From: a virus
Lineage: Duplodnaviria > Caudoviricetes
IMG/VR virus record: IMGVR_UViG_3300042270_000651
Span: 30,209-94,208 of that record
Reading direction: 5' to 3' (one strand)
Length of the DNA: 64,000 nt
In this document: one piece after another, positions 42,580 through 60,917 of the stretch
How the letters are laid out: each line of letters opens with the position of its first letter
Numbering within the stretch: the stretch's first letter is position 1
The notes under the pieces: generated by a model
The model's input: the letters and a program-made list of their open reading frames with translations, nothing else
Database searches by the model: none
Told to the model about the DNA's origin: nothing
Position numbers and translations under genes: made by a program

Positions 42580-43350
42580 TCACCAGATGTTCCGGGACGA
42601 CTTGACGGGGGTGGCCTTCTGCCCGCGCTCGCCGGGCGCCTTTCTCGGTACCGCACCACGGGGCATCGTGTCACGGCCCGACGTGTACAGCCGGTCGTAG
42701 TCGGAGCCACCCACGGTGCCCTTGGCCTCCCGGAAGCGCGAAGTTCCGAACATGGCGTCGTCCGACCAGTTGTCGAAGCTGCTCGACCCCTTACGGGTGA
42801 CGGGGGTGCCGCCCGTGATGAAACCGCCGCCGGCCTTGCTGGCCTTGATCTTCTTGATGCCGAAGTGCTTGTGCAGCCAGTCCACCTGCTTCTGGCTCTC
42901 GACCGCCTTCTCGCAGTAGTGCTTGCGCACGTAGGCCGTGGCGTCCTCGTTGCCGGTCATGGTCTTGACCAGGGCCGACAGCACCATGCCGGTGCGGCCG
43001 TGCCCGCCGATGCAGCCGACGTGCACCTTCCTGCCCTCGGCCAGCTGCGTGGACAGCCAGCCGATCAGGGCCTTGAAGTCCTCGACGTTGGACGGCACCC
43101 CCATGTCGGGGATCACGAACTTGACCTCCGTCCCCTCCCGCCAGGGGTAGTGGCGCTTGGTCATCTTCATGCCGTGGTCCAGGCCCACGTAGACGTCCGC
43201 GTCCAGCACGGCCGGCTCCAGGCAGGAGCCGCCATAGATCACATGCTCGCCGACTGTCAGGGCCGGGTGGTCGTGGAAGCAGCGGCGCCAGCCGCCCTTG
43301 GTCGTCGTACCCATGGCCTCCTTGCCTTTCATTGCAATCACTTCGCCCAC
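42580..43350 (-). CDS. Cys-dependent (CX5R) dual-specificity/PTP-like phosphatase
   Basis: IPDMGVP acid loop; VHVGCIGGHGRTG; AVESQKQ. Confidence 0.85.
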   Translation of the reverse strand: MGEVIAMKGKEAMGTTTKGGWRRCFHDHPALTVGEHVIYGGSCLEPAVLDADVYVGLDHGMKMTKRHYPWREGTEVKFVIPDMGVPSNVEDFKALIGWLSTQLAEGRKVHVGCIGGHGRTGMVLSALVKTMTGNEDATAYVRKHYCEKAVESQKQVDWLHKHFGIKKIKASKAGGGFITGGTPVTRKGSSSFDNWSDDAMFGTSRFREAKGTVGGSDYDRLYTSGRDTMPRGAVPRKAPGERGQKATPVKSSRNIW

Positions 43351-43369: not shown

Positions 43370-44437
43370 TCAGGCGGCGCGAGCCACCTTCTTGATTTTC
43401 ACGCCCGGCATCACCTCGAAATACTGGGCCTTCACGGCCTCGGCCTGGGCCTTCTTGGCCGCGTCCTGCTGGGCCTTCAGCTCGGCGATGTGCGCGGGCT
43501 CGCCGTGCAGCTGAGCCTGCTGCTTCTTATCGGTCGGGTAGCTCTGCTGGGCCCCCAGGGCCTCGACGGCGTACCAGTCGACGTAGTCGCCGCAGCCCCA
43601 CAGAGCCTTGATCTTCTGGGCCACCCCGACCAGTTCGTGACTCCGCCAGTGCGCCAGGCTCGGGTCGTGCAGCACACCCTCCGGGACCTGCCCGGCGCGC
43701 TGCAGGTCGAGGATGCGCAACAGTATCTTACCGCCCGTCGAATAGTGGCCGAACAACATGCCCTTATTGAAGATCGGCCCGTTGTTGTGGCAGAGCGTCC
43801 AGATCGTATCCATCATCATTTCGGCGCTGTACTCGCCGTTGACGAAGTGCACGAGCGGGTCGTTGACCTGACCCCACGCCTTGCCGCCGTAGCCGCCGTT
43901 GTAGCTGCCGTTGTAGAACTGCCAGCGCAGCGCCTCGACCACCGGCCCGATGGCGACGCCCGGCGCATCGGCGTTGATGTGCTTCAGGTAGCTGTTCGCC
44001 ACGTCGGCGCTGTTGTCGCTCAACGTGCCCACCAGCTTCGCCGCCGGGCCGCCGAACTTGGCCTTCATCTCCTGGCGGTAGACCTCCTTGTTCTTGAGGT
44101 GGCGGCTCTCGCGCTGGCAGATCAGGAGCAGGTAGTAGAAGCCGCGCACCGCGCTTACCGAAGCCCGCCGGAAGTACAGGTCGACCAGCTGGTTCTCCGC
44201 CTCCGGCAGTGGCTCGTAGGGCGCCCGCGTCTGCTGAACCTTGGCGTAGGCGTGGTTGAGCAGATACATCTCCATGGCGACCCTCTCGGGGGCGACGCTG
44301 GCATCCGGGTCCTTGGCCATGAAGTCGCGGATCGCGGTGACCACGGCGGCCAGCTTGGCGTTGCGCATGTCCCTCTTGTGTAGGAACGGCCGGGACCGGT
44401 GGTACGCCAGCGTGTTCTTGGGGGCTGACAGACCCAT
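43370..44437 (-). CDS. Uncharacterised protein of the PPDK/phosphatase block
   Basis: 355 aa; GYGGKAWG and DTIWTLCHNNGPIFNKG look like conserved enzyme motifs. Confidence 0.75.
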   Translation of the reverse strand: MGLSAPKNTLAYHRSRPFLHKRDMRNAKLAAVVTAIRDFMAKDPDASVAPERVAMEMYLLNHAYAKVQQTRAPYEPLPEAENQLVDLYFRRASVSAVRGFYYLLLICQRESRHLKNKEVYRQEMKAKFGGPAAKLVGTLSDNSADVANSYLKHINADAPGVAIGPVVEALRWQFYNGSYNGGYGGKAWGQVNDPLVHFVNGEYSAEMMMDTIWTLCHNNGPIFNKGMLFGHYSTGGKILLRILDLQRAGQVPEGVLHDPSLAHWRSHELVGVAQKIKALWGCGDYVDWYAVEALGAQQSYPTDKKQQAQLHGEPAHIAELKAQQDAAKKAQAEAVKAQYFEVMPGVKIKKVARAA

Positions 44438-44545: not shown

Positions 44546-45049
44546 TCAGAGCAGGCCAAACAGGTTGCGCCAGAACAGGCCGACCTTGAACCAGAACAGG
44601 TCCCCGGCCCGGAAATCCTCGACGAAGGCTTCTTGCTCGCGGGTCTCCACGGCGCGCGGCGTGTAGGTCGCCCGCACGAACTGCACCGGATCGCCCTCTC
44701 CGCACGCCTTGGCGAGGCAGGCCAGGAACAGGCCGGTACGACCCCAGCCGCCCATGCAACCGACGTAGATGCGCCCATGCTTCATCAGGGCTTCCATCGC
44801 CTTCTTCACAGCCTCGTGGCAGGCCCGGTCGTCGGGGATCGAGAAATCGCGGATCGGCAGGTCGACGTCGCACTTCGCCCGAATTTCCTGGGCCAGCTTG
44901 ACGCCGAACAGCTCCTCGGGGCGCTTGCGGTAGGGGCCGCCCACCACGTAGACGTCCTTGCCCATCAGCTTCAAGGGCATCACGCCGTTGGCGCCGGGAG
45001 CGTTGGCCATCAGGCCGTCGACAATCTCGATCTGAGCAATCGCATGCAT
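44546..45049 (-). CDS. Second CX5R dual-specificity-like phosphatase
   Basis: IRDFSIP; IYVGCMGGWGRTG; AVETREQ. Confidence 0.85.
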   Translation of the reverse strand: MHAIAQIEIVDGLMANAPGANGVMPLKLMGKDVYVVGGPYRKRPEELFGVKLAQEIRAKCDVDLPIRDFSIPDDRACHEAVKKAMEALMKHGRIYVGCMGGWGRTGLFLACLAKACGEGDPVQFVRATYTPRAVETREQEAFVEDFRAGDLFWFKVGLFWRNLFGLL

Positions 45050-45086
45050 CTGTGCATACCCTCCTTGGTCATGCACGCGGCTCGGC

Positions 45087-45723: not shown

Positions 45724-47820
45724 TCACTCGGTGCCGAGCATCGTAAACACGGCGTACTCGCCGGGCAAGGCGTTTCCGGGGGTCGGCCGGTCCTCGGGCA
45801 TCAGGGGCTTGAGCTGGGCCAGAACCTGCTGGCCGCCCAGCACCTGTTCGATGAACTCGGGCGTGACCTGCGGGGCCACCTTGGGGTCGAGCAGGTCGGC
45901 AACCGTCTCGGCCGGCTTGGCCAGTATGTAGCCTGCGTCCTTGAGCACCTTGGCCGCGTCGCCCTTGGCCCCAACCACTACCGCGTTCTTGATCGGGTTC
46001 GCGGCCAGGGTCTTGACGAGGGCGGCATTCGTGTCCTCGGTCGGCCCGAAGGCGCCGTGCAGCAGGCGGTCCTCGTCGGCCAGGAACCCGGCCGGCGGCG
46101 TCACGTCGATCACCGCACCCTCCAGCAGCTTGGCCACCGTGGCCAGGGCCACCAGGCCGGACTTGTCGTTCAGCCAGTCGGTGCAGACGATGTGCTTGGC
46201 GCCGTCGGCGAGGGCGTTCCAGTCGTAGACCGCCGGGGTCGCGCCCGACAGCTCCAGGCACCACTGCTCGACCTGCTTGACCGCCGGGTCTTCGGAGCCG
46301 TCCACGACCGGCACGTCCCCGAGCCACAGCCGGCCGCTCTCGCCGTCCAGCGTGACCTTGGTCTGGCTGGTGAGCGTGATGCCTCCGACGTCCGCCGACC
46401 CGGCGTTCACCGCCAGGCCGGGCATTCCGGTGACGCAGGGCTTGTCCATGCCGCGTGCGACCACGGCCGCGTGGCTGGTCACCCCACCGTTGGCGGTTAG
46501 GATGCCCTCGGCCTTCTCCATCCCCGCGATGTCGTCGGGGCAGGTGTCGTGGGCGATCAGCACGCAGGGCTGCGTGCAATTGACTGCATCCTCGGCCGAG
46601 AACACCGCCACGCCCTTGGCGACGCCGACGCTGGCCGGCAGGCCGGTGGCAATCGGCGGCGTGTCCCAGGCGGGGTCGATGCGCGGGCGACGCACCAGCT
46701 TGTACTGCTCCGGGGTCAGGCGGGCCAGCGCCTCGTCCTCGACGATCAGCTTCTCCTTGACCAGATCGACTGCGATGCGGAAGGCCGCCAGGGCCGACCG
46801 CTTGCCGGTGCGGCACTGGAGCATGAACAGCTCGCCATCCTGGATCGTGAACTCCAGGTCCATCATGTCCCGGTAGTGCTCCTCCAGGCGTTCGGCCACG
46901 CCCAGGAGCTGCTCGTATTGCTCGGGCCACATGGGCTTCATCTCATCCAGCTTGAGGGGCGTGCGGATGCCCGCGACCACGTCTTCGCCCTGGGCGTTGG
47001 GCAGGAACTCGGCCATGAAGTGGCTGGCGCCCGTGGCGGGGTCGCGCGTGAACATCACGCCGGTACCGCTGGCGTCGTTCTTGTTGCCGAACACCATGGC
47101 CTGTACGTTGACCGCCGTGCCCATGTCCTCGCTGATACCGTTCATCTTGCGGTAGTGCTTGGCGCGGTCGTTGTCCCAACTCTTGAACACCGCCTCGATG
47201 GCGGCGCGCAGCTGGCCGGAGGCGTGCGGGAAGTCCCCGCCCGTCTGGTCCTTGAAGGTCAACAGGTAGTCGCCGATCAGGTTGTCCAGGTCCTGGGCGT
47301 CGAGGTCGCTGTCCAGCTCCGCCCCGGCCTTGGTCTTCCACTTGGCCAGACTGTGCTCGAACAGCTTCATGGGCACGCTGTAGGCGACCGATCCCAGCAT
47401 CTGGATCAGGCGGCGGTAGCTGTCCAGCGCCGCGCGCTCGCCGATGCGCGCCTTCCAGTCCGGCAGCGTGTTCTCGTCAAGGCCCACGTTCAGGATCGTG
47501 TCCATCATGCCCGGCATCGAGAGCGGCGCCCCTGACCGGACCGAGACCAGGGGCAGGTACCCGAACTGGCTGTGCAGCCAGGTCTTCTCCTTGCTGACGT
47601 GCCACATCAGGCTGTCCATCCAGCCCTTCTTGGCAGCGGTGGACGAGAGCTTGCGGTACTCGGCGCACATCTCTGTGGTGATCGTGAAGCCGGGCGGCAC
47701 CGGGATGCCGAGACTGGCCATTTCGGCCAGATTGGCTCCCTTGCCGCCCAGCAGGGTCTTCATGGTGCCGTCCCCGTCAGACCCGTCCTTGGAGAACCGG
47801 TAGATCGGCTTCTTTTCCAT
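45724..47820 (-). CDS. Pyruvate phosphate dikinase-like protein lacking the PEP/pyruvate-binding barrel
   Basis: LLGGKGANLAEM, VSVRSGA, SMPGMMDTILN, NAQGEDVVAG, phospho-His GGVTSHAAVVARG; only 698 aa with an unrelated C-terminus. Confidence 0.9.
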   Translation of the reverse strand: MEKKPIYRFSKDGSDGDGTMKTLLGGKGANLAEMASLGIPVPPGFTITTEMCAEYRKLSSTAAKKGWMDSLMWHVSKEKTWLHSQFGYLPLVSVRSGAPLSMPGMMDTILNVGLDENTLPDWKARIGERAALDSYRRLIQMLGSVAYSVPMKLFEHSLAKWKTKAGAELDSDLDAQDLDNLIGDYLLTFKDQTGGDFPHASGQLRAAIEAVFKSWDNDRAKHYRKMNGISEDMGTAVNVQAMVFGNKNDASGTGVMFTRDPATGASHFMAEFLPNAQGEDVVAGIRTPLKLDEMKPMWPEQYEQLLGVAERLEEHYRDMMDLEFTIQDGELFMLQCRTGKRSALAAFRIAVDLVKEKLIVEDEALARLTPEQYKLVRRPRIDPAWDTPPIATGLPASVGVAKGVAVFSAEDAVNCTQPCVLIAHDTCPDDIAGMEKAEGILTANGGVTSHAAVVARGMDKPCVTGMPGLAVNAGSADVGGITLTSQTKVTLDGESGRLWLGDVPVVDGSEDPAVKQVEQWCLELSGATPAVYDWNALADGAKHIVCTDWLNDKSGLVALATVAKLLEGAVIDVTPPAGFLADEDRLLHGAFGPTEDTNAALVKTLAANPIKNAVVVGAKGDAAKVLKDAGYILAKPAETVADLLDPKVAPQVTPEFIEQVLGGQQVLAQLKPLMPEDRPTPGNALPGEYAVFTMLGTE

Positions 47821-48381: not shown

Positions 48382-48558
48382 TCAATTGCAGGGCGTTGCG
48401 CCCAGGTCCGTGGCCAGGTCACTCGTCCACGGCGCATCGTCGATCACCTCGACCACATGCGCCTTCACGTCATGCCGGAACCGAACGTTAGCGCGGTCGA
48501 GGTCCAGCACGAACGTGCTCTCGTTGGTGTCGGACCAGAACTTCCACCGTCGTCCCAT
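48382..48558 (-). CDS. Small hypothetical protein
   Basis: MGRRWKFWSD...; TGATG-coupled to TerL. Confidence 0.5.
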   Translation of the reverse strand: MGRRWKFWSDTNESTFVLDLDRANVRFRHDVKAHVVEVIDDAPWTSDLATDLGATPCN

Positions 48559-51386
48559 CACGCCTCCTGCGACTCCTTGTCCTCGATGCTGCGCTTGTGC
48601 ACCTGCGGGTTCCTGACCGACTCCGGGATATGCAGCATGGGCACCTTGTGTCGCACCCAAATCTCGCGGCGGCGGGTCAGGCCGTAGATCACGCCGGCCA
48701 TGGCGTCCGAGCAGTCCTTGGAGAACTTGGGCGGGTGGTCGATCTTGTTGTTCTGCGGGTCACGCTCAAGCCGCACCCACTCCTGCATGGCCTTCTCGTG
48801 GTCGGGTGCGTCGACACGGTCGTCGTAGAACGCCTGCTTGCCCATGTCGTAGGGCTGCGTGCTTGTGTCCATGGACTGCAGCCCGGTGATGAAGCCGCGC
48901 TGGGCCAGCAGCTGGATCGTGTCGGTGGACTGGTAGCTGTCGAGCGTCACCCACTTGATGTTCATACCCATCTCGCGCAGGCGGTAGAGCACCGAACGGA
49001 CCTTCTCGAACTCGATCTCGCCTTGCCGGGGCGGTGCGATCTCCAGGACCAGATCGAAGTAGATGCGGGGCAGTATTTCGACTTCCTTCTCGCCGCGCAC
49101 CAGCTGCTCGAACCCGGTGACGTGGCCGATGGCCAGGCCGCAGCTGTCGCCCGAGATGGCCAAGTCGAGGTGGGCGAAGCGGGGCTCGTCCGGGTTGATG
49201 ATCCGCTTCGGGAAAATCTGCAGCTTCGTGTCCTTGAAGTCGACCCGGTCGCGGCCGGCGATGCCTTTCGCGCGCCCGAACGACCGAACCACCGACTCGC
49301 TGTTCAGGATGAACGGGTGCAGGGCCAGGGTCGAGACGCCAGCGATGTCGCGCAAGGCCGACAGCATGTCGCGCTCGAACTCGGACCGGTACTCGTCGGG
49401 CACCTGCATGATCAAGTGGCGGTCCTCGGCGGTGACCTCCTCGTCGTCGCCCAGCAGACGCGGCTTGCGGGTGACGTCGCCGACGAACAGGTTGAACCAC
49501 TCGCCGGAGAACGTCCCCTCGGGCTTCACGTCCCAGACGCGCTTATCGTAGATGAAGATGGTCTTGTCGCGCTGGGCTTCTTCCATCTTGCGGTCGGTGA
49601 ACTCTCCGGGGTACCGCTTCGACGACACCAGACAGAGCATACCCGGCAGCTTGCCGCCCGCCATGAAGCGCGACTTACGGCGCCGGACGATGCCGTTGTA
49701 CATCTCGTTGGCCTGGTCGAAGGTCCCGCCGTCGGACGACGACTTGGACTTCTCGATCACGGCCATGAAGTTGACCTCGTCGATGACGCCGCCGAAGACG
49801 TTCTGGCCGATGGCCGCGTTCACGTCGCCCGACAGAGGCATGACGATCACGCGGTTCGGGAAGTTGAGCTGGCTGGAGATGCCCCGGTCGTAGCGGTAGA
49901 CGTTCTGGAAGTACGGCGAGCTGTCCAGCATCGACTTGAAGCGCATGAAGTCGATGCCCTTGGCCGCCTCCTTCTTCAGCGACTGGAAGATGAACACGAT
50001 CTCCGAGGACGGAGCCAACCCGAACTCCCGGTGCGGGTTCTTGAGGCAGGACAGTAGGTACAGGTGGTAGGCGATGACGATGAGCGCGGCGGTGGTCTTG
50101 CCGGTGTTGCCCGTGATCGCCACGCGCCCATTGCGACGCATGACCCAGAAGGTCTTCGGCACCGAGAAGCAATACTTGTAGCCGTCCGGCGACGGGATCG
50201 TCTCGATGGGCGTCTTGGGCACCCCTTGGAGGGACACCTCCGTGTTCGTGCTCAGGGTCAGCGTGTAGCAGGTGGCCTGCTCAGGCCGCCGGTCGACACC
50301 CACCGTGCTGCGGAGGCCAAGGACACACGCCGCGTACTGCAGGAAGTCCACCGTGGCCTTGTCGGTCGAGAAGAGCTGCCTTCGGTTGTCTGACCGGGCG
50401 TCCCACATCAAGGCTTCGGACAGGATCACGTCGCATTGCTCGCGTGACGCACCCCAGAACACACCCATGGACTTTTCGCGCAACGGAGCCTGGAAGTAGA
50501 ACCGGACACCGCCTCCAGGTCGCGGCGTCTCCGTCCACTCGGCCCCGGCCGAGGCGAGGAGCTGACGAGCCCGCACAATTTTGTCCTTGCGCTTGACAGC
50601 CACGAGGCACGCCCGGCCTGGGCGGTCCTTGTTGAAGCTGCCGTCGGCCATGGCCATGACCTGGACCCGCAGTTCGTCGTCCGACAGGTCGAGGCCGGAG
50701 CCGTCCATCTCGAACGTCGTCAGCAATTTGCCGTGGAAGCCCTTGGCGAGACGGCCGTGCTCCTTGACCAGTTCGTCTGCCACGATGACTTTCAGGGCAC
50801 CACTACGGTCCCGGTACAGGACCCGGTGCTCCGGCGAGAGGGCCTGGTCGATGCCGTACTTCGTTCGCAAGTGGTAAAACTGATTGCACTCCAGGCGCAC
50901 CCAGTCTTCCGGCTCCACGAACTCGGCCTGGCCTGTCTCGGGGTCGTACTGCGCGACCGCCCCACCATCGTAGTCGGCGATACGTCGCCATCCGGTCGGG
51001 GACAGGTACTCCGTGTCGGCGTCGACGCAGCCAATACCGCCGGTCCACACGCTCTCGACGTAGTCGCCGAAGCACAGATCGGCGATCTCGTCCATGATCT
51101 TGGGGTAGACCTCCGTGCCCATGTTGAGCATTTCGGGCGAGCGGATGAAGGTCACCACGTCGACCGGCGGGCGGTGGTACTTCACCGCCTCGGTCCCGGC
51201 AAACCGCCGCATGTACTTCAGGCCGTGGAGGCAGTGCGCGAGCACCCCCTCCAGGCCCTGGTCCTCCTCGACCGTCTTGGCGGCCTGCCACACGATGCGC
51301 CCGCTGTCCCCGAACTGCCGCAGCAGCTGGAACGCCATGCGCAGGCGCTCGGCCGTGGCCTTCTTATTGGAGATGCTGACACTCAC
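48558..51386 (-). CDS. terL: Terminase large subunit with intein
   Basis: Spliced Walker A GGIG-TGKT; GGVIDEVNF; nuclease HLDLAISGDS...VTLDSYQS...KIDHPP...KDCSDA. Confidence 0.9.
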   Translation of the reverse strand: MSVSISNKKATAERLRMAFQLLRQFGDSGRIVWQAAKTVEEDQGLEGVLAHCLHGLKYMRRFAGTEAVKYHRPPVDVVTFIRSPEMLNMGTEVYPKIMDEIADLCFGDYVESVWTGGIGCVDADTEYLSPTGWRRIADYDGGAVAQYDPETGQAEFVEPEDWVRLECNQFYHLRTKYGIDQALSPEHRVLYRDRSGALKVIVADELVKEHGRLAKGFHGKLLTTFEMDGSGLDLSDDELRVQVMAMADGSFNKDRPGRACLVAVKRKDKIVRARQLLASAGAEWTETPRPGGGVRFYFQAPLREKSMGVFWGASREQCDVILSEALMWDARSDNRRQLFSTDKATVDFLQYAACVLGLRSTVGVDRRPEQATCYTLTLSTNTEVSLQGVPKTPIETIPSPDGYKYCFSVPKTFWVMRRNGRVAITGNTGKTTAALIVIAYHLYLLSCLKNPHREFGLAPSSEIVFIFQSLKKEAAKGIDFMRFKSMLDSSPYFQNVYRYDRGISSQLNFPNRVIVMPLSGDVNAAIGQNVFGGVIDEVNFMAVIEKSKSSSDGGTFDQANEMYNGIVRRRKSRFMAGGKLPGMLCLVSSKRYPGEFTDRKMEEAQRDKTIFIYDKRVWDVKPEGTFSGEWFNLFVGDVTRKPRLLGDDEEVTAEDRHLIMQVPDEYRSEFERDMLSALRDIAGVSTLALHPFILNSESVVRSFGRAKGIAGRDRVDFKDTKLQIFPKRIINPDEPRFAHLDLAISGDSCGLAIGHVTGFEQLVRGEKEVEILPRIYFDLVLEIAPPRQGEIEFEKVRSVLYRLREMGMNIKWVTLDSYQSTDTIQLLAQRGFITGLQSMDTSTQPYDMGKQAFYDDRVDAPDHEKAMQEWVRLERDPQNNKIDHPPKFSKDCSDAMAGVIYGLTRRREIWVRHKVPMLHIPESVRNPQVHKRSIEDKESQEA
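50106..51029 (-). mobile_element. Intein (308 aa) in the TerL Walker A motif
   Basis: G|CVDADTEYL...SPEHRV...MAMADGS...RRNGRVAITGN|TGKT. Confidence 0.9.
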
Positions 51387-51936
51387 CGTCGATCACCTCC
51401 AGCAGCTTGTCGTGTTCCTCGGACCAGCTGAACTCCGTCGTGTGGCCCGCCGGGTCGGTCATGGTGCCCATGACGTGCTTGGGCGCGCGGCGCAGGATGC
51501 CGGTCTCCAGTTGCAGGGTGGCGAGCTGGCCCAGGAGGCCCTGGAACAGGCGGGCCTCCTCAGAGACCTGCTTCATCAGGAGCGGGCCCTGCTCCTCGCG
51601 GTGCAGAACCTTCTGGAAGCGCCGCTTCTGGACGATGGCCAACTCCTCCAGCTCCTCCATGACGTTCATCCGCTTGAGCAGGCCGGACGTGGTCTTGCCC
51701 ACCGCGCTCTCGACGATGGACTCGGTCATCTCCTCGCGGATGCGCTTGCGGAAGCGTTCCAGGGTCTTCTTCAGGCTGTCGGCCTTGATGTCGGTGATCT
51801 CGCCCCAGTCCTCCTGGATCAGAGCGACGAGCTTGAGCACGCTGTCGCCGCGCTGCAGGCGGTCGCGCAGTTCGGTCACGCGCTCATCGCCCAGCGCCGC
51901 AATGCGCGGCGGCACGGTTTCCTTGGGGCGAGGCAC
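51364..51936 (-). CDS. Putative terminase small subunit
   Basis: Helical 190 aa protein overlapping the TerL start. Confidence 0.55.
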   Translation of the reverse strand: MPRPKETVPPRIAALGDERVTELRDRLQRGDSVLKLVALIQEDWGEITDIKADSLKKTLERFRKRIREEMTESIVESAVGKTTSGLLKRMNVMEELEELAIVQKRRFQKVLHREEQGPLLMKQVSEEARLFQGLLGQLATLQLETGILRRAPKHVMGTMTDPAGHTTEFSWSEEHDKLLEVIDGECQHLQ

Positions 51937-51937
51937 G

Positions 51938-52861
51938 TCACACCTCCGTGGCTGTCTTGATGTTGTCCTTGGTCGGCGTCACACCCAGGCCCTTGGGCAC
52001 CTCGACCTCGGGCGTCGACGCGATGATCTTGTCCACCACGTCCTTCAGCTCGCCCTTTGCAATCAATTTCACGACCCCGCCGAGCACGTCGTCGAGGGTG
52101 CGCTGCTGCTCGATGCACATGGTCCCGACCAGCCGGCAGGCGTCCATGGTCTTCTTGTCCACCTGGACCCAGATGCTGTCTTGACCGCCGTAGTCGACCA
52201 CCATGTAACCGTAGGGCAGCGTGTCGCCGTACTTGGTGAACATCTCGTTCAGGAGCTTGGCGAGGCCGTCGATGGTCTTGATCTCGCGGGCCGCCTCCTT
52301 GAACTTCTGCTGCATCCCCTTGTCGGGCAGATGCTTGGAGGTCTGCTCGATCAGCTTCTTGAACTCGGCCTCCTCGGCGAAACCGAAGGCGTCCTGCAGC
52401 ACGTCGTCGGCGTACTTGCCCGACATTTCGCTGTAGAGGTCGAAGAACGCCTGCGGGTCCATCTTGCCCTTGATGACGTTCATGCGGACGAGCTGGAAAT
52501 TCTCGGCCTCGTCGTCGAAGCCCTCATCCATGATGACCGTGACCGGGACCATCTCGAAGCCCAGGTAGACGGCCGCGTCGAAGCGGTGGTGGCCGCCGAC
52601 GATGCGGAACTTCAGGCCGTGGGCCGAGACCGACGACTCGATTTCCGCCGGGGTCGGGTCGTCTTCCGCCACGGCGGCGAAGGTGTCGTAATCGAGCGGA
52701 CGCACGAGGATCGGGTCCGTGATGCCCGTCTGCTCCAGGTTGTCGCAGAGCAGGTCGAACTCGCGCGGTTTCATCTTGTTGGGGTTGCGCTCGTTCTTTT
52801 CCAGGGCCGTGACCGGAAGGTCGCAGCGAACGAGCGCCTGGGTCTTGTCGAGAGCCGACAT
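51938..52861 (-). CDS. ParB/Srx N-terminal-domain protein
   Basis: NERNPNKM...GITDPILVRP...RIVGGHHRFDAA. Confidence 0.85.
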   Translation of the reverse strand: MSALDKTQALVRCDLPVTALEKNERNPNKMKPREFDLLCDNLEQTGITDPILVRPLDYDTFAAVAEDDPTPAEIESSVSAHGLKFRIVGGHHRFDAAVYLGFEMVPVTVIMDEGFDDEAENFQLVRMNVIKGKMDPQAFFDLYSEMSGKYADDVLQDAFGFAEEAEFKKLIEQTSKHLPDKGMQQKFKEAAREIKTIDGLAKLLNEMFTKYGDTLPYGYMVVDYGGQDSIWVQVDKKTMDACRLVGTMCIEQQRTLDDVLGGVVKLIAKGELKDVVDKIIASTPEVEVPKGLGVTPTKDNIKTATEV

Positions 52862-53002
52862 TCCAAGCCTCCAGCGGGGTTTCTGTCCTCCATGACCAAC
52901 CCGCCCTCTCGGGGCCGCGTCTGCGGGGCTGGTGAGTGCGGAGTGTTGCAGTGCCGCTGCAGGGCGTCAATCAACGTGTCCCGAGGGACACCAAAACCTG
53001 TC

Positions 53003-54031
53003 TCACCCCTGGTCCACGGCCAGGTCTAGGACCCGCTCGTAGAACCGGGCGACGGGGTACTCCTCCTGAATGCGCGGGGCGGCGACCTCCAGCATGTACT
53101 TCCGGGTCGCGTCCCAGTCCTGGCGCAGCGCCGCCATGGTCTCGGCCAGCTCGGCCTTGGGCACGATGTAGGGGTACCAGGGCAGGAGCTGCCTAATCCA
53201 CGGAGCGTCGAGGAAAACACCGCACACGCCCGACGCCAGAAGCTCCAGGTAGTACGTGCCGAAGCTCTCCCCGCGCGAGGTCGACAGGAACATGCCGTAG
53301 GTGCGGGCGTTCTCCACGAAGGTCGCGCGGTCCTTGGGCTGCTCGAAGAAGCGGTAGACGTTCGGCCGCAGGAACTTCTCCTTGCCTCCCGGCCCCCAGA
53401 CCTTGGCCGGCACATGGAAGAAGTCGCACACCGGGTCGAACCCCTTGGCGCGAGCCCAGACCAGGTACTTCTCGGTCTCCTCCGAGTGCAGGCGCACGTC
53501 CTTCTCGGTCTGGGCGACCCGGTTGTACGGCACGATCAGCCGGTCGGGGTCGTTGTCGCCGGGCCGGAAGCAGTCCTCGATGCCGTACTTCACCAAGTGA
53601 AGTTGATTGCACAGCTTGCGCACGACGGCGGGAGCGAAGGCTTTCTTGGCGTCCCGCATGATGCCGTCGTGTGTGTGCTGCGAGGTCGAGACGTGGGCCA
53701 TCTCGATGCCCGAGACCTTGGGCTCCAGGAACAGGCTCAGGTACGCCATCTTCTTGGGCCAGCTGAACCCGTCCCAATGCCCGGCCATCACCGAAACGAT
53801 CTTGGTCGGGCGGACCCAGCGCAGGTTGTCGAAGGTCTTGAGCAGGGCGTAGAACACCTCGGGCTCCGCCAGGACGAGGACCGGCGAGCCGTTGAAGGCC
53901 GGCGCCGGGGTCGACTTCATGGTGACGTCGAAACCACGGCCCGTGGCCTCGGCCGCAACCTGGTCGGCCAAAATCTTGAGGCTGAACCCTTCCTGGGACT
54001 CGCTGATCAACACTCCAAGCGCGGAACCCAT
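53003..54031 (-). CDS. GT-B (GT4-like) glycosyltransferase
   Basis: FLSTSRGESFGTYYLELLASG (E-x7-E motif). Confidence 0.7.
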   Translation of the reverse strand: MGSALGVLISESQEGFSLKILADQVAAEATGRGFDVTMKSTPAPAFNGSPVLVLAEPEVFYALLKTFDNLRWVRPTKIVSVMAGHWDGFSWPKKMAYLSLFLEPKVSGIEMAHVSTSQHTHDGIMRDAKKAFAPAVVRKLCNQLHLVKYGIEDCFRPGDNDPDRLIVPYNRVAQTEKDVRLHSEETEKYLVWARAKGFDPVCDFFHVPAKVWGPGGKEKFLRPNVYRFFEQPKDRATFVENARTYGMFLSTSRGESFGTYYLELLASGVCGVFLDAPWIRQLLPWYPYIVPKAELAETMAALRQDWDATRKYMLEVAAPRIQEEYPVARFYERVLDLAVDQG

Positions 54032-54042
54032 GTGACCTCCTG

Positions 54043-55224
54043 TCAGTTCTTGAATACCTTCACCCTGGCCTCGTGCAAGGCGTCGAGGTGCTGGCGCAGC
54101 ATATCCACCGCCGGCACCACCCACTCGCGGGCCAGGGGCGACCAATAGCACACATTCGCCGCCCACGAGCCGTAGCGCGTCTCGTTCGTGATCTTGTGGT
54201 GCAGGCGCACGTCAAGCAGCTCCGTCTCGGCGCGGAACAGCAGCTCGACGATGGTGTCCTTGACGTCCTTGGCCTCGATGCCGTGGTCCATCAGCCACTC
54301 CCGCACCGGCTGGCACGCCTTGGCGAAGTAGGCGATGGCGCGCTTGCCCTGGTGGTTGTGCAGGTCGAACGTGTACGAGGGGTACGGCCCGATCTTGGGC
54401 AGATCCACCATCTCGTCGTTGATGGGCGTGGGCGCCCCCGTGGCGTTCATGCTCTCGATGGAGAACGGCAGGGCCAGAGCCATCGGCCCCGCCTTGTTGC
54501 GCGCCCAGGTCACCAGGGCGAGGTCGTCGTCCGACAGCCCCATGGCGGTGCACAGGCTCTGCACGTCGCCGAACGAGCCCGGCCGCTTCGGGAAGCACTC
54601 GCCCGTCCAATAGTCGGTCCCGGCCAGGTAGCGCATGGCGATCATGCGGTGGCCCACCGGCTCCCCCTTCCAGGCCGCGATCTCGAACAGCTCGTCCCTG
54701 GACAGCTTGGCGTAGGCTTCGCGCACCGGCTTCAGCTCGGGGTCGATGTCGGTCCAGACCTCCAGGTCGCAGGCCACCCGGCACTTGGCCGAATGGGCCA
54801 GTTCCTCCGTCAGCATCATGGCCAGCTCGGCGTTGCCGTGGTTCATGCGCCACTTGGTCTTGCCGCACACCCAGATCACGTCCGTCACCAGGGGCAGATT
54901 GGCTACCCCCACGTCCTCGAACGCCACGGCCGGCATCCGCCGCCACGCATAGTCCGGGTCGGCGAGGACTAGGCCGTAGACCATCTTGCGCGCCGTCTCG
55001 GCGTCGCCCCGCCGGATCGCCTTCTGCCAGGCACTGGACATGAGCCACTTGCGGCTCTTGTGGCTGACCCGCACACGGGGCTTCTCGCATTCGTAAGAAG
55101 AAAGTCTGGCCTCCAGCCGTTCTTCAACAGCGGAGGCCAGGTCCTGTCCGATCTTCAGCGCCAGTTGCTTTCCCACTTTAACGTCCTTGTCTTGGGATTT
55201 TGTTGTATCGGTATCGTGCAACAT
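54043..55224 (-). CDS. Protein resembling the MgsA/RarA C-terminal domain, without an ATPase
   Basis: SAWQKAIRRGD...WRRMPAVAFEDVG resembles MgsA SALHKSxRGSD...RRLxxxASEDIG. Confidence 0.6.
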   Translation of the reverse strand: MLHDTDTTKSQDKDVKVGKQLALKIGQDLASAVEERLEARLSSYECEKPRVRVSHKSRKWLMSSAWQKAIRRGDAETARKMVYGLVLADPDYAWRRMPAVAFEDVGVANLPLVTDVIWVCGKTKWRMNHGNAELAMMLTEELAHSAKCRVACDLEVWTDIDPELKPVREAYAKLSRDELFEIAAWKGEPVGHRMIAMRYLAGTDYWTGECFPKRPGSFGDVQSLCTAMGLSDDDLALVTWARNKAGPMALALPFSIESMNATGAPTPINDEMVDLPKIGPYPSYTFDLHNHQGKRAIAYFAKACQPVREWLMDHGIEAKDVKDTIVELLFRAETELLDVRLHHKITNETRYGSWAANVCYWSPLAREWVVPAVDMLRQHLDALHEARVKVFKN

Positions 55225-55242
55225 GGAGCCTTTACTTGCAAA

Positions 55243-56730
55243 TTATTTTACGGTCAGCTTACCGACCTCCGTGCCGTGGTCTGACCACCCGTGCTGGAAG
55301 ATCAGCGACTGCCGGTACTCGTTGAAGTTCGTCGCCATCGAGTAGGACAGCTTCACCCGGTCCTTACGGAACACGTCGTACAGGTGGTTGACTCTCTTCT
55401 CCTTCTGCATCTCGGCCAGGCCGGTGTCGAAGTCGAAGGTCGTCAGGCCCTTATCGGCGGCGTACTTGCGAATGTCGGCCACCACGCCGTTGGCGGACCC
55501 GGCCAGGCGCCCCGTCATGCGCGCCTCGTACTCCTTCAGGGCGTCCATGATCTGGTACGGGAACCACAGGCCGTTGCGACGCTCCATCTCGGGCCGGAAC
55601 CACCCCTCGAACCACTGCCGGAACTTCTCGTACATGCCGGTGTAGTCCTCGGCAAACGCCCGCGCCATGCCATACGCCTGCACCGGCCCGTTGACGATGA
55701 ACGGGTAGTCGGCGCCGAAGGTCGGCCGCACGTATGGGGCGTCCAGCACGATCAGCGGCACCCCGAACGTGACCGGCTCGATCAGGCTGAGCGGGTAGTC
55801 CTCGTCGGGGCTCATGGCCATGCAGACGTCGACTTCCTCCCGCATGAGGCGCCAGAACTCCTCGCGGGGGCAGCGCCGCACGTCGAGGTGCCCGAACCGC
55901 TCGTCCTCCTGATAGCGGTCCACCACCTTGCTGTTGCTGGTCAGCAGGAGGCGCATCCGGTCCTCGCCGCCGTGCAGGGCGTACTGCCGAAAGAAGGTGT
56001 CGAGCACGTCATCCTGCCGGTTGGTCTTGCCCGACAGGCGCTGCGTGTAGGCCATCGTGAAGGTCTTGCCACCCTCGGCCACGGTCTTGACGTAGGACTC
56101 CGGCTTGGTCTCCAGGCCGTCGAACTTGCGCGAGATCGAGGTCAGCAGCTTGCCATCCAGCTCCCGCACCCGGCTCGGGGTCAGGTAGGTCTTGGCCGTC
56201 TTCAGGATCAGGACCTTCGACGCCATGGAGAAGATCAGCGCCTTGTCGGCGGCCAGGTAGCCTGCAATTGACTGCAGGTCCCCGCTGTCAGGGTGCGGTT
56301 GGTTCACGCGGCTCTTGAACGACATGATCGGGAACTCGTCCTCGACGATCACGTACCGCGACCAATGGCGCTTCGAGCGGGTCATCCACATACGCATCGT
56401 GCCGACCTGAGTGGAGCGTGCCGTAATCAGCACGTCCCAGTCCCAGATCGACCCGTTGAAGGCGACCGCGTCCTCGACCTCCGGCGGCAGGCGGGCGTAC
56501 TCCCGCATCCTGTCGCTGTCCTGGGCTACCGGCACGTAGTGCACCCGCTCGTGCTGCAGCAGCCAGTCCTTGTCTACCTCGAACTTTGACCGTTCCGGGT
56601 CGGGCAGCAAGTAGTAGAAGACCACGTCGTCGCGGCGTTCCAGCACGTACTGCATCATGGTCTGCATCTTGAAGTGGCAGCTGCAGTAGGACGGGTCGTT
56701 GGTGGAGATCGGGTCGATCAGAACCTTCAT
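55243..56730 (-). CDS. GT-B (GT4-like) glycosyltransferase
   Basis: VCMAMSPDEDYPLSLIEPVTFGVP (E-x7-E); start ATG 56730. Confidence 0.65.
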   Translation of the reverse strand: MKVLIDPISTNDPSYCSCHFKMQTMMQYVLERRDDVVFYYLLPDPERSKFEVDKDWLLQHERVHYVPVAQDSDRMREYARLPPEVEDAVAFNGSIWDWDVLITARSTQVGTMRMWMTRSKRHWSRYVIVEDEFPIMSFKSRVNQPHPDSGDLQSIAGYLAADKALIFSMASKVLILKTAKTYLTPSRVRELDGKLLTSISRKFDGLETKPESYVKTVAEGGKTFTMAYTQRLSGKTNRQDDVLDTFFRQYALHGGEDRMRLLLTSNSKVVDRYQEDERFGHLDVRRCPREEFWRLMREEVDVCMAMSPDEDYPLSLIEPVTFGVPLIVLDAPYVRPTFGADYPFIVNGPVQAYGMARAFAEDYTGMYEKFRQWFEGWFRPEMERRNGLWFPYQIMDALKEYEARMTGRLAGSANGVVADIRKYAADKGLTTFDFDTGLAEMQKEKRVNHLYDVFRKDRVKLSYSMATNFNEYRQSLIFQHGWSDHGTEVGKLTVK

Positions 56731-57491
56731 GCGAACTCCTCCATGCTGATCGCCGTGCCGTTGTTCTCCCCTACGCCCGCCGTGGCTCCGATGGCCTCCC
56801 GGCACCACTCGACGCCGCCGCAGAACATCGCGTCCAAGGCGCTCAGGCGGATACTGGTGTCCTCGCACAGGCGGGGCAGAGCCGGCGCCTTCCAGTCCTG
56901 ACCCCAAACGCGGATGCCATGCGGAGCGAAGGCGCCCGGCGTGAAGTACGAGCGGATCGAGGTCGCGCCCTGAATGTAGTCAGTGCCGCCGACGGCCTTG
57001 GTCAGGGCGGCCAGCCAGTCCGGGGCATGATCCGGCCGCTGGGGCACCAGGTCCTTGGAGGCGATCAGCGGCACCGGGAGGTGCAGGACCGAGTGCAGCC
57101 AGCGCATGGTCACCCGGTTGACGTAGGCCAGATCAGGCTGCTTGTCCGAGATCGACCGGAGGTAGCCCATCAGGGTCGTGAACTGCTTCTCGACCTCGCG
57201 GTACCCGTCCAGCTTGCCATACCGGTCAGCGCACTTGCGCTCGAACTTGTCGGCCCAGCGCGCCAGGTCCATTACCTCGATCTCGTCTATGGGCCGGCGG
57301 TTCTTCTTGTGGCAGGTCAGGCTTTCCTTGGCGGGGCCGTCCTTCGCGGACATCAGGCACCAGGAATGCTCGGCCTGCCGGTTGTGCTGCGCCTCCTGCA
57401 TCAGGATCACCACGTCGCAACGGGCGAACCGCTCCAGCATGTAGAGCGGCGGGAAGAACAGGGGCTGCGTGCAGGTCACCCATTTCGTCAT
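56727..57491 (-). CDS. WbqC-like protein (family proposed to be glycine transferases)
   Basis: QPLFFPPLYMLERFARCDVVILMQEAQ...GGTDYIQG...LSALDAMF match the WbqC pattern. Confidence 0.75.
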   Translation of the reverse strand: MTKWVTCTQPLFFPPLYMLERFARCDVVILMQEAQHNRQAEHSWCLMSAKDGPAKESLTCHKKNRRPIDEIEVMDLARWADKFERKCADRYGKLDGYREVEKQFTTLMGYLRSISDKQPDLAYVNRVTMRWLHSVLHLPVPLIASKDLVPQRPDHAPDWLAALTKAVGGTDYIQGATSIRSYFTPGAFAPHGIRVWGQDWKAPALPRLCEDTSIRLSALDAMFCGGVEWCREAIGATAGVGENNGTAISMEEFA

Positions 57492-57493
57492 GG

Positions 57494-58063
57494 TCACACC
57501 TCGTAGACCACGGTCTTGTTCAGGGCATCGTCAGGCGACCACACAGGCCCGACCACGGGCTCGCTCTGGAACAGGCCATTCAGATCGGCGAGGTGGTAGC
57601 TATACAGGCGTCCGTCGTAGCAATCCGCGTCGAGGTAGGAGACCATGACGTGGCGCTCGCTGTGCAGGCGCAGCAGGTCCACCAGGGCCGGGGCCTCCTC
57701 GGACGCCACCGTGGCCAGGACACCCATGGCCGCCACCATATCGAAGGCCATGTTGAGCGCGTACTGCCCGAACTTGCCGTGCACGAAGGTACGGTTCGGG
57801 TAACGGCGCCGGGCCTCCTCCACGATCCACTGCGTGTAGTCGAGACCGACGTAGCTGTCCGTCAACGGCAAGCTCTCGGAGATGCACCCATAGCCGCACC
57901 CCACGTCCAGGGTGGTCTTAGGCTTGAGGCAGGCGAGGATGCCGCGTGCCACGCCAATCCGGCCCGTGTAGCGCCACTCGTCGCCGATCATCAGGCCCTT
58001 GCCGGTGCCCTTATACTTCTCATGGGCCTCGTACAGCTTTTCTGGGGTGTCATCCAAAGCCAT
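57494..58063 (-). CDS. Class I SAM-dependent methyltransferase
   Basis: TLDVGCGYG; YVGLD; FDMVAAMGVL. Confidence 0.85.
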   Translation of the reverse strand: MALDDTPEKLYEAHEKYKGTGKGLMIGDEWRYTGRIGVARGILACLKPKTTLDVGCGYGCISESLPLTDSYVGLDYTQWIVEEARRRYPNRTFVHGKFGQYALNMAFDMVAAMGVLATVASEEAPALVDLLRLHSERHVMVSYLDADCYDGRLYSYHLADLNGLFQSEPVVGPVWSPDDALNKTVVYEV

Positions 58064-58083
58064 GTGTCCTTCCTCCTTGATGG

Positions 58084-58770
58084 TCAGCGGACGACTTTCC
58101 GCATGACGTGGAACAGTTCGGCGTACTCCAGGCCGCACTCCAGCCCCCGCATCCGCGCCTGGGCGACACTGGCGTCTACGCTGAAGCAGTGCTGGCCCTC
58201 TCGCATCTGCGTCCGGTAGCAGTTCAGGGCGTCAGTCTTGGCCTTCAGGCTGGTCTCGGGCAGCTCGACGTACATGCCGCCCTTGCCCGCGTCGGCGCCC
58301 GACCCCGGCCCCCACACCGTGGCGGGGTACTCGTAAGCTGCAATCAGTTGCAGGGTGTCGTTGAAGGCCGACGGCCGGGTGGCGGCCAGGCAGGCGCGGT
58401 ACGTTATTTCGTGATCCTGATGGCTGCTGGGCAGGGGGATCAAAATTTCGGTGGGTCGGAAGTCGCGCTGCACCTTGTCCAGCTCCCCGATGATCTCAAC
58501 CAGGGGCAGGGTGTCCAGCTTCCGGTCGTGTGCCCAGAACAGGCCCTTGCAGTGCTGCACCCCGAGAACGCTCATCGAGTCGTGGCACTCGGACATGCGC
58601 TCTTCGGCGGTGACCGTGCGGCCCAGGTGGGCGAAGTGCACATCGCCGAGGGCCACGACCACGTTCATCACTTCGCCGCCGGCCTCGGTGACTCGGTGCA
58701 TGTACCCTCCGCACCCCAGCTCGGCGTCGTCGGCGTGGGGGCTGATGACTAGAACCCGCTTATTGTGCAA
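58084..58770 (-). CDS. PIG-L/LmbE family N-acetylglucosaminyl deacetylase
   Basis: VLVISPHADDAELGCGG; SHQDH; TTG start 58770. Confidence 0.9.
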   Translation of the reverse strand: MHNKRVLVISPHADDAELGCGGYMHRVTEAGGEVMNVVVALGDVHFAHLGRTVTAEERMSECHDSMSVLGVQHCKGLFWAHDRKLDTLPLVEIIGELDKVQRDFRPTEILIPLPSSHQDHEITYRACLAATRPSAFNDTLQLIAAYEYPATVWGPGSGADAGKGGMYVELPETSLKAKTDALNCYRTQMREGQHCFSVDASVAQARMRGLECGLEYAELFHVMRKVVR

Positions 58771-58885
58771 GGCATTCCCTCCGTGGACTCCTTTCCAGGA
58801 GGTCTTTCTATCACCGCAGGGTGGGGCCTTCACACACGAAGGGCCTGGCTTGCTCAAAACCAGGCCCAGAACCTCTCGTTTTCGG

Positions 58886-60587: not shown

Positions 60588-60917
60588 TCAGTCGCGCAGC
60601 TCGCGGTGCTCGACCGTGACCTCGCGGCCCGCCTCGCGCAGACGCCGGGCGGCGATCTCCACCACGGCCACCGAACGATGGCGTCCGCCGAAGCAGCAGA
60701 CCCCGACGCGACCATGGGCCTGGGCCTTCAGGATCACGGTCGAGGCGAGGTGCTCGGCCTCCGGCATCACGTAGTCCTGGACCTTGGGGTGGCGGCCGTC
60801 GAGCGGCTTCAGCTCCAGGACATGGTGCGGGTTGCGCACGCGGCGCACGTCCACGTAGGCGTCGCCGGCATCGGCCTTGCGGTGCTTCACACCGAACGAG
60901 TACAACTTGATCTGCAT
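60588..60917 (-). CDS. RapZ (YhbJ) C-terminal-domain-like protein
   Basis: YSFGVKH...DVRRVRNPH...LKPLDG...CCFGGRHRSVAVVE. Confidence 0.75.
   Translation of the reverse strand: MQIKLYSFGVKHRKADAGDAYVDVRRVRNPHHVLELKPLDGRHPKVQDYVMPEAEHLASTVILKAQAHGRVGVCCFGGRHRSVAVVEIAARRLREAGREVTVEHRELRD

Follow-up and report, generated by a model that had tools for sequence, protein, structure and literature searches.

A terminase-adjacent phage operon of glycosyltransferase, PIG-L deacetylase and WbqC-family genes as a candidate glycosyl-hypermodification system

Organization of the operon

The operon described here lies in a 94-kb provirus of the IMG/VR collection (IMGVR_UViG_3300042270_000651, 65% GC), of which bases 30209-94208 form the window analyzed, a stretch of 64,000 nucleotides whose numbering is used throughout. 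Seven genes of a candidate sugar-modification cluster occupy positions 51938-58770 on the minus strand inside a run of co-oriented genes. In order of transcription they encode a PIG-L/LmbE-family de-N-acetylase (58084..58770), a class I S-adenosylmethionine (SAM)-dependent methyltransferase (57494..58063), a WbqC-family protein (56727..57497), a GT-B glycosyltransferase (GT) referred to as D (55243..56733), an MgsA_C-like protein termed C (54043..55224), a second GT-B enzyme termed B (53003..54031) and a ParB-N (ParB/Srx) protein (51938..52861). The genes are tightly coupled and run into those for the presumed small terminase subunit (TerS) and then the large subunit (TerL), with intergenic gaps or overlaps of at most 23 nt throughout, save for 141 nt ahead of parB. 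A first-pass annotation made from the sequence alone had drawn the cluster at exactly these bounds, which hold to the base: position 58770 is the TTG start of the PIG-L gene after a GGAGGG, and position 51938 is the final base of the parB stop codon. The identities it had given to the seven genes were borne out by Pfam, PHROG, profile and model evidence as detailed below, and so was its placement of the cluster directly upstream of TerS/TerL, the TerS call itself coming from position and same-slot homology.

No convincing internal promoter or terminator above the shuffled-sequence level was found in the operon, and the GC content at 52-58 kb (0.64-0.65) is the same as that of the remaining phage, with no compositional anomaly. 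The operon is probably expressed late. Upstream of the first gene, a GC-rich hairpin (GGCCTGG-N-CCAGGCC, 58840-58866, minus strand) is present between an open reading frame (ORF) of 67 aa and the ribosome-binding site of the PIG-L gene, and the region of this binding site is itself able to form a small CTCC/GGAG stem.

Deacetylase and methyltransferase

The 228-aa product of the first gene matched PF02585 (E 2e-18) with 67.3 bits against a gathering cut-off of 28.2 bits, and its zinc/catalytic motifs are intact (PHADD at residue 11, HQDH at residue 117). The best NCBIfam model was BshB1 (TIGR04001, E 1e-16), to which the protein scored 61 bits against a cut-off of 182.5; judged by its sequence, it is not a BshB1 ortholog. 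Characterized PIG-L enzymes use conjugates of N-acetylglucosamine (GlcNAc), not UDP-GlcNAc, as substrate. Homologs of this deacetylase were present in the phage loci L002, L003, L004, L015, L017, L018 and L021 as well as in Stenotrophomonas phage DLP3 and Rhodobacter phage RcZahn.

The methyltransferase (189 aa, Methyltransf_25/11, motif I LDVGCGYG) occupies a variable slot of the cluster and represents its least conserved step, with homologs found only here and in L025, where a protein of 27% identity (E 9e-14) is encoded two genes from WbqC in a phage contig. Elsewhere the same slot is filled by a GATase (L003), a 191-aa protein termed u191 (L004) or, in other relatives, unrelated methyltransferases.

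The WbqC-family protein

The 256-aa WbqC-family protein matched PF08889 (E 5e-19) with 69.5 bits against a cut-off of 21.3, covering profile positions 1-214 of 218, and no other Pfam family was detected for it at E<=10. An AF2 model built from a 100-sequence alignment, obtained by exhaustive HMMER search, reached a pLDDT of 96.7. In a Foldseek comparison with the PDB the sole match of this model at E<0.001 was BshC (4wbd, E 2.6e-4), and VIA-align likewise ranked BshC first (Z 13.8, 231/256 residues, rmsd 3.6 A) by a margin of about 2 Z units, the next row being the class I lysyl-tRNA synthetase LysRS-I (11.7) followed by GluRS (about 8), CysRS (7.6) and MshC (7.1). The predicted structure thus shares the Rossmann/HUP core fold of BshC and of class I aminoacyl-tRNA synthetases (aaRS). 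On the basis of this model we propose that the protein is an ATP-dependent amino acid:amino-sugar ligase, and the modeled structural link to BshC stands whatever the target of the pathway. Membership in the BshC family at the level of sequence was considered and rejected, as a profile search of PDB sequences returned no BshC and the lengths differ (256 aa vs about 540 aa in BshC, which includes a C-terminal domain). Matches to kinesin light-chain tetratricopeptide repeats in the same search were spurious. A literature search found no functional work on WbqC, nor a source for the glycine-transferase role that the first-pass annotation had cited for WbqC/WbnG proteins.

Glycosyltransferases D and B

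GT D (496 aa) is predicted to adopt the two-Rossmann-domain GT-B fold, with an extra C-terminal helical domain (AF2 model, pLDDT 91.7, pTM 0.91). Foldseek gave more than 500 GT-B matches in the PDB for this model, headed by glycogen synthase, MshA, BshA, SenB and the GT of phage HY126. By sequence the relationship is faint, the Pfam Glycos_transf_1 score of 13.6 bits (E 0.048) lying below the threshold of 26.4. The motif E311-x7-E319 is present, and E319 is invariant. Known phage DNA arabinosyltransferases likewise resemble BshA (PMC13326640).

The second GT, B (342 aa), gave neither a Glycos_transf_1 match in Pfam nor a hit in the profile search of PDB sequences. It aligned to D in hhalign with 98.5% probability (E 1.6e-15, 240 columns), and its motif E255-SFG-x4-E263, of the same E-x7-E type, was invariant across 34 sequences. 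By this homology B is a predicted GT-B enzyme and a paralog of D. Among 5.8 billion proteins the D family comprises 24 homolog clusters and the B family 35, in both cases almost only from uncultured phage contigs. A locus search with D as single query returned one distant locus, and a BFVD fold search of D returned solely unnamed or generic phage GTs. As far as sequence can tell, D and B are distinct, small and unannotated GT-B families.

The C-terminal 80 or so residues of D (about 415-496; basic, pI about 9) correspond to a separate 152-aa ORF in L005 (8981-9439), which immediately precedes the B-type GT in L005/L006. This piece of D may be a targeting or partner domain that can be separated from the enzyme. 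A 105-kb contig of an unrelated phage (L007:10001-13214) encodes two B-type GTs in tandem and, after them, an AAA protein of 399 aa, an arrangement that echoes the pairing of GT and MgsA-like protein seen in this cluster.

MgsA_C-like and ParB-N proteins

Protein C (393 aa) was recognized by its family profile, which matched the RarA/MgsA structures 8g28, 2qw6 and 3pvs (E 3e-10 to 1e-5) over residues 41-134 or thereabouts. As a single sequence it reached only E 0.018 against PF12002, while its homolog P0026 carries PF12002. No AAA+ ATPase domain was detected in C by Pfam and NCBIfam scans, the MgsA_C match beginning at about residue 41 of 393. Homologs of C were found in L003, L004, L013, L014, L015 and RcZahn.

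The ParB-N protein, encoded right before terS, scored narrowly above the PF02195 cut-off (27.7 vs 26.3 bits), matched phrog_26387 with E 2e-81 and carries a GHHR motif of the GxxR type at residue 90. Homologs with 42-67% identity adjoin GTs in relatives of the same TerL lineage, and those of L020 and L022 are about 30-34% identical.

Conservation of the cluster in other phage loci

The core of GT, ParB and terminase genes recurs in at least 15 independent phage loci, and the gene arrangement is therefore not due to chance. The linkage spans three terminase types, namely that of the present lineage, Terminase_6N (L020, L026) and GpA (L022). The first-pass annotation had made its reading depend on a neighborhood conserved in related phages, and the genes are indeed co-conserved in relatives. 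The constant part, located beside the terminase, comprises GT-B enzymes and ParB, in most cases together with the MgsA_C-like protein, and frames a variable set of sugar-tailoring genes, to which the methyltransferase belongs. The gene order is GNAT, PIG-L, GATase, WbqC, D, C, ParB, TerS, TerL in L003, while L004 reads B, B, PIG-L, u191, WbqC, D, C, ParB, TerS, TerL, PPDK, CsrA, PTP, u355, PTP, and a JGI 61-kb contig reads DUF5983, PapZ_C, MgsA_C, WbqC, PIG-L, D, B, DCD, ParB, TerS, TerL (the gene names not yet introduced are explained below). In L018 and L021 the genes for B, WbqC, D and PIG-L were placed after TerL, not before. The tailoring slot of L013 and L014 holds two NDP-sugar epimerase/dehydratases, accompanied in L013 by a UDP-glucose-dehydrogenase-like gene. 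In L020 and L022, B, a protein of about 440 aa and ParB precede terminases of other families (Terminase_6N and GpA), and in L026 the genes DegT, epimerase, PIG-L and WbqC are located ahead of a T4-type terminase. No homologs of u191, of the GNAT and GATase, of u152 or of the cluster-linked ThyX subfamily described below were found in the present genome.

Megablast with the 12-kb region as query gave no match among cultured phages. D-type GT homologs with 27-31% identity were identified in cultured phages, namely Stenotrophomonas DLP3/DLP5/Summit (Delepquintavirus), Rhodobacter RcZahn and Rhizobium RHph_Y1_11/TM16, of which the loci of DLP3 and RcZahn were examined. Both share with the present operon PIG-L and the same module order. 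Of the two, only the DLP3 locus showed homologs of ParB, TerS and TerL; it encodes PIG-L, WcaG, WecE, a methyltransferase, a D-like GT, ParB, TerS, TerL and a ThyX-like gene. Both differ from this operon in that its WbqC and methyltransferase genes are replaced by those for an epimerase/dehydratase, an aminotransferase and a methyltransferase of other descent. The DLP3/RcZahn cluster has so far been annotated as moron, lipopolysaccharide (LPS) or Erm genes, and the RcZahn paper contains no discussion of these cluster genes.

Candidate genes for the acceptor base

The first-pass annotation had seen no enzyme in the window that would supply an acceptor base. This holds for the window, while the same prophage encodes ThyX-like and dCTP-deaminase-like (DCD) proteins together with DUF5983 next to its integrase, outside the window (G000:C1:7580-9886, L011). 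The prophage ThyX-like protein carries an insertion of about 110 residues and has RHR changed to KHQ; it reads KHQDGFVQNEVSRRY where the aligned 6j61 reads RHRTASV-NEISGRY, and so departs from the canonical RHRxxSxNExSxRY signature. In the circularized genome the ThyX-like/DUF5983/DCD genes would lie about 10 kb upstream of the cluster on the same strand, assuming that the right end of the record is the prophage end.

Related loci have such genes within the cluster or next to it. DCD is located between GT and ParB in L013/L016, L017, L005/L006 and the JGI contig. A divergent ThyX-like gene precedes B in L005/L006, separated from it by one small ORF; in L013 it is found 8 kb upstream, and in DLP3 it comes immediately behind TerL. 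This cluster-linked ThyX-like subfamily has the signature THRVFSRNAxSxRA, compared with the canonical RHR..S.NE. DUF5983 also neighbors the cluster in the JGI contig and L013.

Terminase and flanking genes

The presumed TerS (51364..51936, minus strand) matched no family in Pfam, PHROG and NCBIfam scans; homologs in the same slot were found in L002, L003, L004, L013, L014, L017, L018, L019 and DLP3. TerL (48558..51386, minus strand; 942 aa), identified by PHROG terminase matches, has its Walker A loop interrupted by an intein of about 320 aa, with intein-type PHROG matches over residues 114-444. The TerL proteins of relatives (539-628 aa) align to residues 1-120 and 423-937 of this TerL, and the intein junctions read WTGGIG/CVDADTEYL and ITGN/TGKTT, the slash marking the boundary. 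The intein is absent from L004, L013 and the JGI contig, and L003 has one at the same site with a weak LAGLIDADG signal.

Downstream of TerL, all on the minus strand, follow a truncated dikinase (45724-47820) resembling pyruvate phosphate dikinase (PPDK; Pfam PPDK_N, PEP-utilizers), which has the ATP-grasp and phospho-His domains and lacks the PEP/pyruvate barrel, a phosphatase of the dual-specificity (DSP) type (44546-45076, Pfam PTP-SAK), a basic protein of 355 aa (u355, 43370-44437), which is a conserved companion downstream of TerL, and a second DSP-type phosphatase (42580-43350), also a downstream companion. This dikinase/phosphatase/u355 set likewise follows TerL in L004, L013 and L015 and, in part, in L005, L014 and L017. 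In DLP3, genes for a PPDK, two proteins with phosphatase domains and a hypothetical protein of 339 aa (gp140) occur in the same order. Starch is phosphorylated by glucan-water dikinase and dephosphorylated by SEX4, and by analogy the set could add phosphate to, and remove it from, a hydroxyl of DNA or of a glycan. We also considered u355 as a hidden 5mYOX or amino acid:DNA transferase and rejected this, an ESM Atlas search having given low-TM noise with a poor model and no support.

Upstream of the cluster, a conserved neighbor (60588..60917, minus strand) encodes a protein that consists of the RapZ C-terminal domain only (PapZ_C; PF22740, E 1e-23). It is 40% identical to the 'RapZ-like' gp140 of RcZahn, which there precedes the MgsA_C-like and deacetylase genes, and in the JGI 61-kb contig PapZ_C is found immediately ahead of MgsA_C, WbqC and PIG-L. 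The C-terminal domain of E. coli RapZ senses glucosamine-6-phosphate (GlcN6P), and the phage protein might therefore raise the supply of the precursor UDP-GlcNAc, a speculative role argued from analogy. Nothing usable came from searches on PapZ or on the Rhodanese-phosphatase superfamily.

Proposed pathway

The first-pass annotation had proposed a route in which an N-acetylhexosamine (HexNAc) is added, deacetylated, aminoacylated and methylated. The order of the first three steps agrees with the GT4-, BshB- and BshC-like matches obtained here, whereas the methylation step is poorly conserved. In bacillithiol (BshA/BshB/BshC) and mycothiol (MshA/MshB/MshC/MshD) synthesis, a retaining GT4 enzyme (BshA/MshA) adds GlcNAc, a PIG-L/LmbE enzyme (BshB/MshB) frees the amine and BshC/MshC, which are BshC-like or class I aaRS-like, then couple cysteine to the amine thus freed on glucosamine-malate or glucosamine-inositol. 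The GT4-like, BshB-like and BshC-like enzymes of the operon would therefore repeat three consecutive steps of these pathways, with the same enzyme classes and the same order of chemistry, which supports the route through HexNAc addition, deacetylation and aminoacylation. This parallel, drawn at the level of folds and families, is the strongest support for the route. In contrast to the thiol pathways, the genes here, two of them for GTs, belong to the packaging operon of a phage, the acceptor is probably a macromolecule and, from their sequences, the cluster is not a set of orthologs of bacillithiol or mycothiol synthesis genes.

We give about even chances to the operon being a late-expressed system for glycosyl hypermodification, directed at the DNA of the phage itself shortly before packaging. 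A DNA target is favored by the DCD and ThyX-like genes in or beside the cluster of relatives and outside the window in this prophage, by the position of the methyltransferase and WbqC genes of L025 among those for RecA, RuvC and ribonucleotide reductase, by the constancy of the GT-ParB pair next to terminases of unrelated families, and by the GTs, ParBs and terminase neighbors of published hypermodification pathways together with the likeness of known phage DNA GTs to BshA. In addition, the DNA of the cultured relative DLP3 resisted all 15 restriction enzymes tested, its authors leaving the modification undetermined (PMC7326821). For target, sugar, amino acid, methylation site, step order and acceptor base we infer the following scheme. 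D and/or B would move a HexNAc (in all likelihood GlcNAc, donated by UDP-GlcNAc) onto the hydroxyl of a modified pyrimidine in DNA, PIG-L would strip the N-acetyl group from the attached sugar to leave a free amine, and the WbqC/BshC-like enzyme would use ATP to ligate an amino acid to it, as BshC and MshC do on glucosamine conjugates. The SAM-dependent methyltransferase would then methylate the product, probably on an amine. ParB-N and the MgsA_C-like protein may recruit the enzymes to DNA or link their action to packaging, and the divergent ThyX-like/DCD genes could supply the acceptor. The fully specified version, an aminoacyl-(N-methyl)-glucosamine placed on a DNA base by GT4/PIG-L/BshC-like chemistry with the acceptor hydroxyl provided by a neofunctionalized ThyX-family enzyme, is a more tentative proposal that we regard as possible and, taken as a whole, rather doubtful. 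Since the sugar-tailoring genes form a swappable slot, related phages would make different glycans.

Comparison with known hypermodification systems

Phage DNA-hypermodification pathways are commonly accompanied by GTs, ParBs and terminase neighbors, and a ParB protein activates a phage thymine dioxygenase (PMC13229309). The 5mYOX-ParB-GT clusters (PMC8256090; bioRxiv 10.1101/2023.12.21.572611; PMC13229309) have in common with the present operon the neighborhood of GT, ParB-like and terminase genes, late timing and sugar-tailoring accessory genes, and in those systems ParB activates the DNA-modifying enzyme. The present record differs by the lack of a detectable 5mYOX and by GTs of a distinct, unannotated GT-B family. 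Pre-replicative glycosylated pyrimidines are represented by the glucosyl-5-hydroxymethylcytosine (5hmC) of T4 and the glycosyl-5-hydroxycytosine (5hoC) of RB69, DLP3(Acinetobacter) and RL38J1, as described in PMC13326640. These T4/RB69-type systems likewise show BshA-resembling GT-B enzymes, clusters of sugar-nucleotide enzymes and glycan diversity among related phages, and a term search of that paper found no sugar deacetylation or aminoacylation. They differ in that a ThyA homolog makes their acceptor nucleotide, whereas here divergent ThyX-like proteins only are present. Because both defining enzymes were searched for and not found, the cluster falls outside the 5mYOX-based and the ThyA-based (T4, RB69 and SPO1 type) systems; it would work like phage glycosyl hypermodification. 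In the DNA-hypermodification papers searched, action on DNA is mentioned for no deacetylase, WbqC/BshC-like ligase or MgsA_C-like protein.

Several points weigh against a DNA target or against individual steps of the scheme. In the 94-kb record no TET/JBP protein (5mYOX, PF12851) was detected at E<=1, a very divergent member being possible, and no ThyA homolog (PF00303) at the same threshold. The ThyX-like gene of the prophage falls outside the cluster-linked subfamily, remains about 10 kb off even in the circular form and could encode a protein that just makes dTMP. A deacetylated or aminoacylated sugar on DNA is absent from the hypermodification papers searched. The co-occurrence of the genes could largely reflect a backbone shared within one phage lineage, inherited rather than functional. 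To our knowledge the catalytic activity of BshC has never been reconstituted in vitro, which makes the transfer of function from BshC weak. The restriction resistance of DLP3 DNA may have a source other than this cluster.

Alternative explanations

The GTs of mycobacteriophages glycosylate virion proteins, and the GTs of this operon might similarly decorate capsid, tail or packaged proteins with a tailored amino sugar in late assembly, a possibility that the first-pass annotation had also named. The location of the operon among late genes, beside the packaging and structural modules, agrees with such a role, and swappable sugar-tailoring genes would fit the diversification of surface glycans. 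We nevertheless consider it improbable, as the cluster goes with ParB and the terminase across three types of terminase and not with genes for capsid or tail, DCD and ThyX-like genes occur within it or adjoin it, and in L025 the methyltransferase and WbqC genes are found among those for RecA, RuvC and ribonucleotide reductase. Less probable still is host-envelope or lysogenic conversion, in which the enzymes would remodel LPS, capsule or a precursor and thereby block superinfection or change the serotype. The phage is temperate (integrase present) and the WbqC family is named after O-antigen clusters, although most WbqC relatives whose context was checked sit in phage contigs, not in O-antigen loci. 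The operon is without a membrane protein, flippase or Gtr-type component, it lacks the promoter and terminator typical of morons, its GC content matches the remaining phage and translational coupling ties its genes into the operon for late packaging. The authors of the DLP3 study proposed LPS modification for the GT and credited altered erythromycin minimal inhibitory concentrations of the lysogen to the cluster methyltransferase (PMC7326821). That result compares lysogen with wild type and is not gene-specific, and the DLP3 'Erm' methyltransferase is not homologous to the methyltransferase of this cluster.

A soluble aminoacyl-glucosamine metabolite, that is a bacillithiol- or mycothiol-like conjugate or a signal made during infection, would require the very enzyme types found here, since GT4, PIG-L and BshC-like proteins are those of bacillithiol synthesis. 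GNAT genes near the cluster in L003, L004, RcZahn and the JGI contig recall MshD, and the RapZ C-terminal domain protein upstream corresponds to a GlcN6P sensor domain in E. coli. A small molecule, however, needs no paralogous GT pair, ParB, MgsA_C-like protein or terminase linkage. Relatives moreover swap PIG-L/WbqC for NDP-sugar epimerases/dehydratases and UDP-glucose dehydrogenase while the GTs are kept, a pattern that fits the diversification of a glycan on a macromolecule, and we rate the prospects of a soluble product as slim.

Implications

The link between WbqC and BshC provides a testable function for a widespread family that had no assigned function, and if the proposed route is correct, it would constitute the first biochemical role for the WbqC family. 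The product would be a cationic or zwitterionic glyco-amino-acid hypermodification, so far undescribed. If the target is DNA, this would represent a new chemical class, in which an amino sugar already attached to the polymer loses its acetyl group and then receives an amino acid, as well as a new way to supply the acceptor base that does not proceed via ThyA homologs or TET/JBP. DNA hypermodifications determine resistance to restriction enzymes and CRISPR and affect the sequencing and cloning of phage DNA, which is of relevance to phages considered for therapy, among them the Delepquintavirus phages of Stenotrophomonas. They are also a source of enzymes for DNA labeling.

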